Part shown: piece after piece, positions 9,662 to 52,396 of the stretch
How the letters are laid out: each line of letters opens with the position of its first letter
How positions within the stretch are numbered: the stretch's first letter is position 1
Source: an uncultured bacterium
Lineage (GTDB): Bacteria > UBA8481
Direction of reading: 5' to 3'
Length of the DNA: 64,000 nt
Assembly: GCA_964499705.1 (NCBI GenBank)
Contig: CAZCME010000009.1
Span: forward strand, 2,001-66,000
Program-made: the position numbers and the translations under genes
The notes under the pieces: generated by a model
Told to the model about the DNA's origin: nothing
Database searches by the model: none
The model's input: the letters and a program-made list of their open reading frames with translations, nothing else

Positions 9662-9733
9662 AGCGGCCGATGGGATTCGAACCCACGACGTCCAGCTTGG
9701 GAAGCTAGCATTCTACCACTGAATTACGGCCGC
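9662..9733 (-). tRNA. tRNA-Gly(CCC), CCA not encoded
   Basis: Reverse complement GCGGCCGTAATTCAGTGGTAGAATGCTAGCTTCCCAAGCTGGACGTCGTGGGTTCGAATCCCATCGGCCGCT: cloverleaf, anticodon CCC, GTTCGAATC T-loop. Confidence 0.95.
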
Positions 9734-9792
9734 GAGAGTCAGGAAGAATTCTGTCACATCCCTATATCACTGTCCACGCCGGAATCGGCGCT

Positions 9793-9991
9793 CAGATGTT
9801 CCCCATCCGATGGCGGGAATCAACAGGATGGGCAGGATTGGGGGCATGGAATCCGCAATCGGCTTGAATGGGGAGATTGGCGGGTGTTCTGCCTCTCTTC
9901 GATAACAGGACGGCATTATCTTCATTTCTACTGTGAATCGATCCTGCCTATCCTGTTCATCCTGTTACTATATTTTGATGGGTGACTTCTG
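9793..9991 (-). repeat. Nested-palindrome MITE-like element, copy A
   Basis: Ends CAGATGTTCCCCATC / GATGGGTGACTTCTG; inner AACAGGATGGGCAGGAT... and ATCCTGCCTATCCTGTTCATCCTGTT; reverse complement of copies at 29592 and 49275. Confidence 0.85.
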
Positions 9992-10019
9992 ATCGTCGCT
10001 GCTGCGTCGGAGCACGCGA

Positions 10020-29591: not shown

Positions 29592-29731
29592 CAGAACCTC
29601 CCCATCAAAAAATATTAACAGGATGAACAGGATAGGCAGGATCGATTCAGGGTGGAATAGAAGGCAATTTAGTCCTGTTATCGGGAAGTGGTTTTCATTC
29701 CTCCCAAATCCTGCCCATCCTGCCCATCCTG
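29592..29731 (+). repeat. Nested-palindrome element copy B, left part (interrupted by the intron)
   Basis: CAGAACCTCCCCATC..AACAGGATGAACAGGATAGGCAGGATCGATTCAG..ATCCTGCCCATCCTGCCCATCCTG. Confidence 0.85.
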
Positions 29732-30215
29732 GTGCGCCGGGCGAAGCCTGGCCTGTCTTGTGACCTGAAAGGAGGTCGCCATGTGAATTGTCCGTTCAAC
29801 ATGTAGCAGAGGAAGCGTCGGTCGGGAGTAATTCCGACGACGAAGCCTTCCAATGCGAAAGTGTGAGCTGTAACGCAAGTGAACCTGATTCAGCCTCGTT
29901 AAGCTAAGCGAGAGCGGTCAGACTGTCAGGATTGATGAAGCCTGTCATCGGCGAGGAAGCAACGGACACGTGCACTCGTCGAGCTCTCCGGGGTCATTGA
30001 GGACAGCGCGCACGGAAAGACGGGTCGAGGAACCCGGGAGACCCGTTTGGGACTTTCCTGCTGTAGGTAGGAAAGAACGCTGCTGCGGAATTCATAACGC
30101 GGTGACGGCTCAGGCGGGAGTCGGATGGGCTCACAGTAGCGAGGAAGCGGGTTAATGTCCGTGGAGCGAAGGAGCCCTGTCGGAAGTATGTTTTGAAATT
30201 GGAGGTAAGTGCCGC

Positions 30216-30344
30216 TTGAACGAAAGTTCCACTACGGGTAATCCGTTGGACGAAACGTCTGCTCGAAATTTGGGCAAACGAATTGCTCTCCCTGAGAAAC
30301 TCTCGCTTCTGAGGACAAAACTAGGCCAAAAGGCCAAACAGTGA
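30216..30344 (+). CDS. Detached N-terminal (RT0) segment of the intron-encoded protein, 42 aa
   Basis: GGAGG 30201-30205, TTG 30216, ...[21 protein letters not shown]. Confidence 0.6.
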
Positions 30345-31585
30345 GCCGCGAGAGCGGCGCAAGGAAGTTCCGATTCTATGTTTTGTATGATCGGATCTAT
30401 CGGATGGACACGCTTGAGACGGCGTGGCGATTGGTTGCTCTCAACAAGGGAGCCCCCGGTGTGGATGGTGTCACGACTGACGACATCCGAAAATGCGACG
30501 GCGGCGAGGCTGTTTTTCTGAAAGAGATTCACGAAGCGCTTCGCACCAAGACCTACCGCGCTCAGGCAGTACGCCGTGTCTACATTCCCAAAGCCAACGG
30601 GAAAATGCGACCGCTCGGCATCCCGACAATCCGGGATCGCGTGGTTCAGATGGCGACGCTGTTGATATTGGAACCGATCTTTGAAGCGGATTTCGAGGAA
30701 TGTTCCTTCGGATTCCGTCCGGGTCGTTCCGCTCATCAGGCATTGGATGCCATTCGCACGGAACTGACGGCGGGAAGAGTTGCGATATACGATGCGGATC
30801 TACAAGGCTGCTTCGATGAAATTCCCCACGACAAGCTTTTAGCATGTGTGCAGATGAGGGTCGTCGACCGATCGGTCATCGGCCTGATACGCATGTGGCT
30901 GAAATCGCCCATCGTGGAAGAGGACGGCAAGATGGGAAACGGAAGAAACGGGAAGGGCACGCCGCAAGGCGGGGTCATTTCTCCGCTTCTGGCGAACATC
31001 TTCCTTCACTGGCTGGACGTGACGTTTCACCGGAGTGGCGGTCCCGGAGTATGGGCGAACGCTCGACTGGTCCGCTATGCCGACGATTTTGTCGTCATGG
31101 CGCGATATCAGGGTGATCGTATTACGAACTGGCTGGAATCGACGATCGAAGGCTGGATGGATTTGAAGATCAACCGAGAGAAAACTCGCGTGATCGATCT
31201 GAGGACGGAAGGAGCCAGTCTGGACTTTCTCGGCTTCACTTTTCGTTATGACCAAAGCATCAAGAAGCGCGGCAGCGTATATCTGAACATCACGCCGAGC
31301 GCCAAAGCGATGAGCCGGGAACGCGAAAAGTTGCGAACGATGACAAGTGCGAAAATGTGCTTCAAGCCGATGCCCGATCTCATTGAGGATCTCAATCGAC
31401 ACCTCAAAGGCTGGGCGAACTACTTCAGATATGGATACCCGCGGACATCATTCCGGGATATCAACACGTATGTCCACGAACGGCTGACGAAACATCTGCG
31501 GCGACGAAGCCAACGAAAATATCGCTTTCCGCAGAATATGTCCTGTTATGAGCACCTCAAGAGACTGGGGCTCATGACTCTGTGA
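30341..31585 (+). CDS. ltrA: Group II intron reverse transcriptase/maturase
   Basis: [59 protein letters not shown], domain X GWANYF. Confidence 0.93.
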
Positions 31586-31696
31586 ATGCCTCAAGCGAGA
31601 GTTTCCGAGAGAGCCGGATGCGGGAAATCCGCCTGTCCGGTTCGACGAGGGGCGCGGCGGCGGACGAAACACATGTCCGCCCCGCGCCTACTCTAC

Positions 31697-31729
31697 TTAA
31701 ATTTACCGCCATCGGATGGGGAACTTCTG
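31697..31729 (+). repeat. Nested-palindrome element copy B, right end
   Basis: TTAAATTTACCGCCATCGGATGGGGAACTTCTG matches the ends of copies A and C. Confidence 0.85.
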
Positions 31730-49274: not shown

Positions 49275-49446
49275 CGGAAGTTTCTCATCAAAAAATTTAA
49301 CAGGATGAACAGGATAGGCAGGATCGATTCAGTGAGGAATTGAATTTAATGCAGTCCTGTTATCGGGGAGAGGTTTTCATGCTTCTTAAATCCTGCCCAT
49401 CCTGCCGATCCTGTTAAATTTCCCACCGCCGGATGGGGAACTTCTG
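49275..49446 (+). repeat. Nested-palindrome MITE-like element, copy C (intact, intron-free)
   Basis: CGGAAGTTTCTCATC..AACAGGATGAACAGGATAGGCAGGATCGATTCAG..ATCCTGCCCATCCTGCCGATCCTGTTAAATT..GGATGGGGAACTTCTG. Confidence 0.88.
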
Positions 49447-50908: not shown

Positions 50909-52396
50909 ATGCTCAGATCACGCTTCAATACCTTTATCCTGATCCTTCTCCTTTTGGCCGCCGTCGCCTATGCCGCGCCGGCGCATACCGTGCAACCCGG
51001 TGAGACCCTGATGGCGATCGCGCGAGCGGAGCTCGGTTCCGGCGCGCGCTGGAAGGAGATCTACGAGTTGAACCGCGACAAGCTCGCGAGCCCTGACCAG
51101 GTCAAGGCGGGGATGGTGCTGGTGATGCCGGCGAAGGGAGCGGTGTCGGCTACGCCGACGGCCACTGCGACGACGACGACGACGACGGCGACGGCCACGG
51201 CAACGGCGGCCGCCGGGAGCGAATGGACTCATGTTGTCCAACCAGGAGAGACGCTCCGGAGTATCGCCCGGGAACGGTGCGGTGGAGTTGAGAAGTGGAA
51301 GGAAATCTTCGAGATGAACACGGATAAGCTGGCGAGTCCCGACCAGGTCAAGGCGGGAATGGCGCTGAAACTTCCGGTTCGATCGTCGGCGCCCGCCGCG
51401 AACTCGATCCCGCCCGTCTCGGTTCAGGCCTCGGCAGAAGCGGCAGTGGCACCGGCGGATAAAGTCGAAGCGGTGGCCGTCACGATGGAACCGGAAAAAG
51501 TTATCGAAGAGGAACCCATTGTTGCGGAAGCTGCGCCGCTGACAGGCGCGGCGGATGAAGCCGCGGAGATGACCACGGCAATGGAACCCGTTAAGACGGT
51601 GGAAGCGCCCGCTTCTCCGGATAAGGAAGCGGCAATTATTGAAGAAGCACCCGCCGAGGTCCAGGCCGCCGCATCGGAACCCGTGGTCACGAGGATGGCG
51701 GAAACTCCTGAAGCCGTCGTTGCGCCCGCGCCCGACCGCCCGGTCGCCGCACGTGTTGAGGAGCAGGACGAGGAAGAAGAGATGCCGGTGGCGGCACTTC
51801 CAGCCGAACCGGCGCCTGTTTCGTCGCGACGACCGTTGACCGCTTCGGACGCGCTCGACGAAGCGCGACGAGAGTTGGAACGTGTCCGAGCCGTGGCGGG
51901 AGTGCCAGCATCGGCTCCGGCTGCTTCTCCAACCGTTTCATCTTCCCCATCCACAGCGGAAAAGACGACGGTTGCCGAACGGAGACCCGCGCCTTCAGAG
52001 CCGGTGGCCGCTTCCAAGCCGGTCGCGGCGGTGACTCCCGTGCCTTCGGTGACTGCGGTCGAGCCTGACGCGCGTCCCAAGGCGAAGTGCTACACGCAGA
52101 AATTTCCGATGCGGTCCGGTGATCGCGCGAATGCGCGCTACGGCGACGAGCTATCGGCGAAGCTTATTGCGCACTGGAATCGCACAGGCCGGATCTACTC
52201 CAATCCCGCGGACGCGGACTTCACCGTGCTCGGACAGTATTGGGCTCGCGAACGGGAACTGATCGTGCGCGTTGATATTCAGAAGGGGATGCGGATCGTA
52301 AAGTCCCTGCAGTGGCGCGTCATGAAGAACGAGCTGGAGATGGGGGAGACCTTCTACGAGCGGATGGGATCCGAGATCGACGCCGCGATGAACTGA
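50909..52396 (+). CDS. Secreted protein with two LysM domains and a long Ala/Pro/Glu-rich linker
   Basis: HxVQPGETL..IAR..W.EI.E.N.DKLASPDQVKAGM twice. Confidence 0.88.
   Translation: MLRSRFNTFILILLLLAAVAYAAPAHTVQPGETLMAIARAELGSGARWKEIYELNRDKLASPDQVKAGMVLVMPAKGAVSATPTATATTTTTTATATATAAAGSEWTHVVQPGETLRSIARERCGGVEKWKEIFEMNTDKLASPDQVKAGMALKLPVRSSAPAANSIPPVSVQASAEAAVAPADKVEAVAVTMEPEKVIEEEPIVAEAAPLTGAADEAAEMTTAMEPVKTVEAPASPDKEAAIIEEAPAEVQAAASEPVVTRMAETPEAVVAPAPDRPVAARVEEQDEEEEMPVAALPAEPAPVSSRRPLTASDALDEARRELERVRAVAGVPASAPAASPTVSSSPSTAEKTTVAERRPAPSEPVAASKPVAAVTPVPSVTAVEPDARPKAKCYTQKFPMRSGDRANARYGDELSAKLIAHWNRTGRIYSNPADADFTVLGQYWARERELIVRVDIQKGMRIVKSLQWRVMKNELEMGETFYERMGSEIDAAMN

Follow-up and report, generated by a model that had tools for sequence, protein, structure and literature searches.

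The window analysed here is a stretch of 64,000 nucleotides on contig C9 of a 4.67 Mb genome of an uncultured bacterium, which is assembled in 45 contigs; the sequencing runs that contain its DNA are groundwater or aquifer metagenomes according to their labels. Within the window, a group II intron of 1,965 nucleotides (29732-31696, plus strand) splits one copy of a dispersed palindromic repeat of about 173 bp into two parts. The ribozyme looks small, IIB-like, and class E/F-like, where "class F-like" is what its traits suggest, and the intron-encoded protein (IEP) has no endonuclease (En) domain. We consider it likely that the intron entered the repeat by reverse splicing into the final ATCCTG unit of its 3' arm, and that it belongs to a clade whose members habitually reside in palindromes made of rows of short units. 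The interest of the locus lies mainly in this lineage pattern rather than in the single copy found in the window.

All parts of the intron are encoded on the plus strand. It starts with GUGCG and ends with CUAC, as group II introns do with GUGYG and AY (GTGCG at 29732, TAC up to 31696), and exon-binding site 1 (EBS1) pairs with intron-binding site 1 (IBS1) at the 5' splice site. Two Rfam models match above their gathering scores: RF02005 (D1-D4-6, 65.2 bits) covers 29771-30003, and RF00029 (D5/D6, 48.2 bits) covers 31609-31696. The D1 structure and the catalytic triad of domain V, both required of group II introns, are present in these alignments. Domain V comprises 33 nucleotides (31611-31643), contains an AGC triad, and has a terminal loop of five nucleotides within the stem-loop-stem GCGG-GAAAU-CCGC. 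It is followed by domain VI and the 3' splice site (31644-31696). The remaining open reading frame (ORF) of the IEP begins with GTG and encodes 414 residues (30341-31585), which include RVT_1 (82-301), GIIM (327-396), and the motif YADD. There is no En domain in this ORF, and nothing follows GIIM that could be an endonuclease.

The repeat is a long imperfect palindrome with terminal inverted repeats, three short units in each arm, and a central region between the arms. In the occupied copy A (plus strand), the 5' part constitutes the 5' exon (29592-29731), which runs from the terminal inverted repeat through three CAGGAT units (29619, 29628, and 29637) and the central region to three ATCCTG units (29708, 29717, and 29726). 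The units are spaced by 9 nucleotides in both arms. The intron is located directly after the last ATCCTG unit, which is the IBS1. The 3' part constitutes the 3' exon (31697-31729), which opens with TTAAAT and closes with the terminal inverted repeat. An earlier note, made from the letters of the window alone, had proposed that an En-less intron interrupts such an element, that its removal restores a sequence matching an intact copy, and that a hexamer complementary to part of the intron is reiterated in the arms. These claims hold, and every coordinate that was checked is correct. The rebuilt intron-less site ..CCCATCCTG|TTAAATTT.. is gap-free across the junction in an alignment with 25 other copies of the same genome. 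The 140 nucleotides upstream of the intron are 88% identical (E 2e-39) to copy C (49275-49446, plus strand), which is intact and empty as judged by sequence match and fold. A third copy within the window was found with the family profile (9791-9993, minus strand; G000:C9:11791-11993); it is empty as well and more diverged. A tRNA gene (9662-9733, minus strand) is located 58 nucleotides from this third copy.

In the genome, the repeat family is dispersed and mostly intergenic. Its hidden Markov model (HMM) has 115 matches on both strands, of which 63 reach a model coverage of at least 80%. These 63 were counted as 34 loci on 17 contigs, namely the occupied locus and 33 others. The near-full-length copies show 73-88% identity, except for one outlier with 70%. 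Stop-free frames of at least 200 residues were found at nine of the 34 loci, which is a crude test of intergenic location in a GC-rich genome. Folded with DNA parameters, copy C forms a single long hairpin of -32.2 kcal/mol (z -4.27), and none of 200 shuffled sequences folded as well. The family shows the features of repetitive extragenic palindromic (REP), REPIN, or miniature inverted-repeat transposable element-like repeats, with many dispersed conserved copies (34 loci) that form hairpins. The word ATCCTGTTAA is found at 55 sites in the genome compared to 2.9 expected from composition, and these include the mirror-image site on the opposite strand of the occupied element itself. The core TTAAAT/ATTTAAC resembles the GTTRRRY/RYYYAAC of attC sites. 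An identity as attC was dropped, since the family is scattered across 17 contigs with no cassette array.

Pairing between the intron and the repeat is the basis of the proposed target choice. The hexamer CAGGAT at 29927-29932 is the complement of ATCCTG at 29726-29731, and the earlier note had made its idea dependent on whether this hexamer lies in the EBS1 loop. It does: in the Rfam alignment CAGGAU is located in the terminal loop of a D1 hairpin. The Rfam alignment and the covariation were preferred over a minimum free energy (MFE) fold of domain I alone, in which part of CAGGAU is paired. Across eight aligned introns, EBS1 and IBS1 change jointly, from CAGGAU/ATCCTG in the window to CAGAUU/AATCTG (L042), CAAGGG/CCTTTG (L045), and CGGAGA/TCTTCG (L046), with L052 being the one poor case with three pairs. 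At least five contiguous pairs from the splice site, at the same place of the loop, are found at 54 of 64 distinct sites, compared to a mean of 17.8 and a maximum of 28 with shuffled partners. CAGGAU is a real EBS1. The alignment column of A29996 pairs with exon position +1 in 94% of 50 introns, with five types of base pairs, and we therefore take A29996 to be EBS3, paired with the T at 31697 that opens the 3' exon. The situation is less clear for EBS2. In the relatives, an internal loop with the sequence UUACRC, which corresponds to UUAAGCUAAGC at 29900-29910 of the window, can pair with a YGYG just upstream of IBS1. In a loop pairing test it scored 4.36, barely above the 4.04 obtained with shuffled partners, and no column exceeded 0.74 in the column-wise covariation. 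It is the co-variation of CAC with GTG and of CGC with GCG, seen by eye, that suggests an EBS2 in the relatives.

The lineage was examined through the insertion sites of related introns. A search with the IEP provided 31 loci from species-representative genomes and the best 80 of 259 from metagenome contigs. Boundaries were placed by an HMM of the 5' end and by patterns for domain V and the 3' end, and are uncurated. Among the 112 sources (the window and 111 loci), the 5' boundary could be placed in 75 and the 3' boundary in 67, which resulted in 68 distinct 5'-exon contexts. The relatives behind the 65 distinct insertion sites analysed have IEPs with 56-83% identity and come from many phyla. 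By eye, almost every 5' exon ends with a row of similar units of 8-10 nucleotides, for example ..CTTCGTGnn.., ..ATCCGTGnn.., ..CTTTGCGn.., or ..ATCTGTGnn.., and many of the 3' exons start with TGGTGA, TGGTTAA, or another unit. A hexamer resembling IBS1 (at most one mismatch) is found again 7-11 nucleotides upstream at 39 of the 65 sites, compared to 1.6 sites on average, and never more than 5, in shuffled exons. The distance is most often 9 nucleotides (25 cases), followed by 10 (8) and 8 (6), and the harmonic of 18 nucleotides appears 11 times. The exact reverse complement of IBS1 is present within 150 nucleotides upstream at 19 of the 65 sites (shuffles: mean 1.8, maximum 6). Forty rebuilt sites, each with at least 110 nucleotides upstream and 40 downstream, could be folded. 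In 24 of these, the MFE hairpin has the base before the intron in its 3' arm; in nine the base is in a 5' arm, and in seven it is unpaired. In 20 of the 40, z is below -2. The strongest cases (L042, L078, L086, L097, L121, L143, and L147) are near-perfect palindromes, with the intron 5-7 nucleotides, or one unit more, from their 3' base. In genome G061 (L048; by its label a metagenome-assembled genome of the Desulfobacteraceae), five empty sites have the same word ..ATCCTGTAAATCCTG|TCT.. as the occupied one. Sitting in unit-array palindromes is a lineage-wide habit of these introns. The earlier note had named, as a result that would refute its idea, other intron copies in unrelated sequence. 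The relatives instead occupy reiterated palindromes like this one, and for the lineage the flank test therefore favours the idea.

These counts also bear on the simplest alternative, that an ordinary intron landed once in the repeat because ATCCTG is over-represented, with no specialisation of the lineage. Such an accident would agree with the single copy of the intron, the lack of an EBS2 match in the window, the 5,524 occurrences of ATCCTG in the genome, and a closest relative whose 5' exon is not obviously reiterated. It is hard to reconcile with the reiterated IBS1 words at three fifths of the relatives' sites, with the preference for 3' hairpin arms, and with the same layout in a second genome, G061, and we regard it as quite improbable.

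A further alternative is that the ribonucleoprotein recognises the DNA stem-loop in the manner of IIC introns, and that the reiterated units are incidental. In a search of solved structures with the IEP, IIC reverse transcriptases (RTs) rank first (GsI-IIC, 4e-59), although this set contains no class E or F protein. In addition, at many of the relatives' sites a strong hairpin has its 3' base 5-7 nucleotides away, and the use of stem-loops is known for IIC introns (Zimmerly and Semper 2015, PMC4424553). However, IIC introns insert just after a terminator stem-loop or into attC, whereas the window intron is located inside the 3' arm of its palindrome, and 16 of the 40 folded sites are outside the 3' arm. 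The anatomy of the ribozyme also argues against this explanation. In their description of the ribozyme classes, Nagy et al. (2013, PMC3753933) report that IIC introns have no EBS2 and lack part of EBS1, while IIE and IIF introns have a terminal loop of five instead of four nucleotides in domain V and a size of 450-700 nucleotides. The window intron has an EBS1 of 6 bp, and its relatives have an EBS2-like loop. Its domain V loop has five nucleotides, as, by eye, do those of L032 and L042, and without the full IEP region (30216-31585; 1,370 nucleotides) about 595 of the 1,965 nucleotides remain for the ribozyme. Together with the En-less IEP and EBS3 these are the class E/F traits of the window intron. 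In IIE and IIF introns both EBS1 and EBS2 are complementary to the exon; here EBS1 pairs, and the loop at the position of EBS2 forms at most two pairs. A search of plasmid proteins with the IEP retrieved only unnamed ltrA genes with at most 46% identity. By its ribozyme traits, and in agreement with the earlier note, the window intron is probably not a IIC intron, and recognition in the IIC style is unlikely.

In this genome itself, the intron is single-copy, with one match and no fragments. Its assembly within a long contig argues against collapsed copies. No remnant of the intron is present at any of the 33 other repeat loci, and proliferation is not seen. Spread of the intron to many landing sites within this genome is not supported, given exactly one copy. 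The related claim, that the intron is specialised on a multicopy palindrome, stands for the lineage but not for this genome, where only the one locus is occupied. In two runs, X3 and X4, joints from 29731 to 31697 were found that could look like an empty site. They were rejected as such, their shorter side having only 32-33 nucleotides, and any other copy of the repeat would give them. The system is probably not thriving here, and the copy is more probably a recent or dead-end arrival than an active coloniser.

The state of the IEP gene points in the same direction. At 30342-30364 it has 23 nucleotides in place of the six nucleotides that encode Glu-Pro in the relatives. This net insertion of 17 nucleotides, which can form a small GC hairpin, shifts the frame and brings in a stop, so that a TGA closes the first 42 residues and the rest restarts at an internal GTG. 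The detached N-terminal piece, identified by comparison with the intact IEP of L040, comprises 43 codons (30216-30346, plus strand) and ends with KLGQKAKQ followed by TGA. The window copy thus lacks the intact RT/maturase ORF expected of an ORF-containing bacterial group II intron, while L040, with 83% IEP identity, encodes an unbroken IEP of 450 residues. A contig of run X3, from another groundwater study, matches the intron without exactly these 17 nucleotides and without any other difference across that stretch; in the X3 contigs just one other difference to the window intron was seen. The inserted string is found nowhere else in the genome. The insertion site seems to be polymorphic in nature, because the X3 contig is free of the insertion and the contigs of runs X1 and X4 stop at this point. 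Judging from its sequence, the window copy is probably crippled and would be inactive at present. The RNA run X9 contains a contig of 208 nucleotides identical to 31392-31599, and also a diverged piece of domain V, which is too little for a claim on transcription or splicing.

Several observations weigh against the reading that we prefer. Only one of the 34 repeat loci is occupied, so that specialisation is not visible in this genome. The loop UUAAGCUAAGC forms a best run of two pairs with the ..CTGCCC of this repeat, and the window copy would therefore recognise its site through EBS1 and EBS3 alone. An IBS1 within the stem would be hidden in the folded hairpin, which argues against simple hairpin recognition. 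The repeat had no match in the four nearest genomes, three of other genera of the same family and one more of the same order, which are 86-96% complete so that its absence there is not proven. The top rank of the IIC proteins among the solved structures belongs here as well. The nearest relative, with 83% IEP identity (L040, L071, and L072), has a differently worded 5' exon with no obvious reiterated IBS1, and 26 of the 65 sites are without reiteration. At 16 of the 40 sites the MFE fold does not place the insertion in a 3' arm. A large number of the relatives come from short metagenome contigs, and their boundaries derive from HMMs and regular expressions and not from curated structures. Finally, survival bias, with introns persisting in neutral repeats, is not separable from true targeting.

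The repeat might also have brought the intron with it. Of the two Y1_Tnp genes of the genome, one is flanked, on a single side, by an array palindrome of CAGGAT and ATCCTG units. This small palindrome (L163, 2349-2425; G000:C13) consists of three CAGGAT units and the matching ATCCTG units at 9-nucleotide spacing, is located about 500 nucleotides upstream of that Y1_Tnp gene (minus strand, C13:80706-81038), and precedes a two-gene unit that ends with a Y1-transposase-like gene of 340 residues. By its position, the product of this gene could be a candidate for spreading CAGGAT-array repeats. If the repeat were mobilised, for example by a tyrosine transposase, it might carry the intron as cargo, or both might spread together, and the terminal inverted repeats of the element would fit such a history. 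However, the intron is found in one element only and has left no remnants at the other 33 loci. Across hosts, EBS1 follows differing unit sequences, as is consistent with RNA-guided insertion. Hitch-hiking is thus highly improbable.

According to the explanation that we prefer, reverse splicing into the repeat, the target would be picked by RNA-DNA pairing, of EBS1 (CAGGAU) with ATCCTG and of EBS3 (A29996) with the following T. Both would guide the reverse splicing into a unit of the 3' arm, in the relatives together with EBS2. The landing site may be prone to hairpin formation or to being single-stranded. Because the IEP is devoid of an En domain, we propose that complementary DNA synthesis would be primed from the nascent strand at the replication fork, a mode established for other En-less introns. 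The clade is found in many phyla, and its members are habitually located in palindromes whose arms consist of rows of units of 8-10 nucleotides. In each host, EBS1 would be tuned to the variable part of the unit, while EBS2 (UUACRC) would read the constant YGYG part in most relatives. The benefit for the introns would be that unit-array repeats offer many identical and harmless sites on both strands.

A bolder version of this explanation could as easily be wrong as right. The whole clade of En-less class F-like introns might be an obligate hyperparasite of widespread and unexplained bacterial array palindromes, with EBS1 directed at the host-specific half of each unit and EBS2 at its constant YGYG half. 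If so, the introns would follow the repeats across phyla by retuning a loop of six nucleotides, and array palindromes would be a fourth natural target specificity of bacterial group II introns, besides homing sites, terminators, and attC. The introns would then also be natural probes of when, and on which strand, array palindromes are single-stranded in vivo. In general, a well-understood RNA-guided retroelement would be tied to bacterial repeats without known origin or function, and the biology of these repeats could be read from which sites the introns occupy, on which strand, and at which position. The window is a modest example for this. Its value lies in the clean pair of an occupied and an empty site and in the natural pair of a broken and an intact IEP variant.

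Some further features were seen in the related introns. About 29 of the 68 seem to begin with GAGYG, GAAGCG, or GAAAGCG and not with GUGYG, according to the HMM and pattern boundaries (L044-L150), and in most of these the exon end still pairs with EBS1. Two head-to-tail arrangements were found: in L046 (118-127) a second intron begins 9 nucleotides after the 3' end of another, and in L075 (2180-2181) the second follows directly after the 3' end of the first. One of the four nearest genomes contains, elsewhere, a remnant of a related intron without ORF (L032, 1308-1500, minus strand; genome G004 of the same order), in which the region just before domain V is joined to a fragment of the IEP N-terminus. 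Domains V and VI of this remnant are intact, and its 3' exon resembles short repeated units. In L051 (4337-4375) the 3' exon contains, behind the word TGGCTAAAA, a second copy of the last 25 or so intron nucleotides. The introns L078, L081, and L143 from metagenome contigs are 84-97% identical and have identical 5' flanks of up to 130 nucleotides, and their 3' flanks are unrelated right after TGGTGA or TGGTTAA. This could be due to several occupied copies, rearrangement, or chimeric assembly. In the window itself, a direct repeat of 72 nucleotides (51050-51121 and 51296-51367; 83% identity, 246 nucleotides apart) probably reflects a duplication within a coding sequence.

A literature search did not reveal a paper that names unit-array palindromes as a target class of group II introns. 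Homing sites, terminators, and attC are the target specificities of bacterial group II introns listed by Zimmerly and Semper (2015, PMC4424553), and array palindromes are not among these three. Of the listed systems, the class C introns, which insert after terminator stem-loops or into integron attC (PMC4424553; Toor et al. 2006, PMC1702495), share with the window intron the En-less IEP, a link of the target to inverted repeats, a large number of potential sites in each genome, and a short sequence requirement. They differ in that the window intron is inside the 3' arm and within a reiterated unit, and has the 6-bp EBS1, the EBS2 of its relatives, and the IIE/IIF-type loop of domain V. RmInt1 of Sinorhizobium meliloti, which homes into ISRm2011-2 (PMC1802570), is also En-less and also has a multicopy mobile element as natural target. 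There, the target is a protein-coding insertion sequence with a long unique homing site, whereas here it is a non-coding palindrome of short units. An association of group II introns with extragenic palindromic repeats has been described in Pseudomonas putida KT2440, in which two of the nine copies of an intron are REP-associated (Tobes and Pareja 2006, PMC1525189). The passage on this association, however, contains neither a base-pairing logic nor a lineage-wide pattern.

For the repeat, the most similar sequences are the class 3 global regulator sites of Geobacter metallireducens, which are described as five tandem heptamers (consensus MTYCTGA) and depicted as strand-switching palindromes (Aklujkar et al. 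2009, PMC2700814). The arms of the window repeat are also rows of short units, ATCCTG fits MTYCTG, and both are dispersed and mostly intergenic. The window family is longer (173 bp), and has conserved termini and a conserved centre, a period of 9 nucleotides, and three units per arm. For the intron, the closest counterpart is Ge.ur.I1-1, a group IIF intron of Geobacter uraniireducens, in a class F whose core includes So.us.I2 and Pe.th.I2 according to PMC3753933 and PMC3552965. The window intron shares its small IIB-like ribozyme, the En-less IEP, and the five-nucleotide loop of domain V. Unlike Ge.ur.I1-1, it would pair by EBS1 and EBS3 only, and its membership in class F is suggested by traits. 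In the part of PMC3753933 on Ge.ur.I1-1, alternative 5' splice sites are reported 9 and 19 nucleotides upstream, each preceded by a copy of IBS1 (AUUCG), with CGUGU as IBS2. The 5' exon is thus reiterated in both systems, and the relatives found here share the pattern of words (..ATTCGTG..ATTCG|). The extra IBS copies are presented there as a complication of splicing, and the exon not as a dispersed palindromic repeat. The word "repeat" does not occur in the text of Nagy et al. (2013, PMC3753933), nor do "repeat" and "palindrom" in that of Toro and Martinez-Abarca (2013, PMC3552965). A clade of introns living in palindromes would account for both the multiple IBS copies and the alternative splice sites reported for Ge.ur.I1-1.

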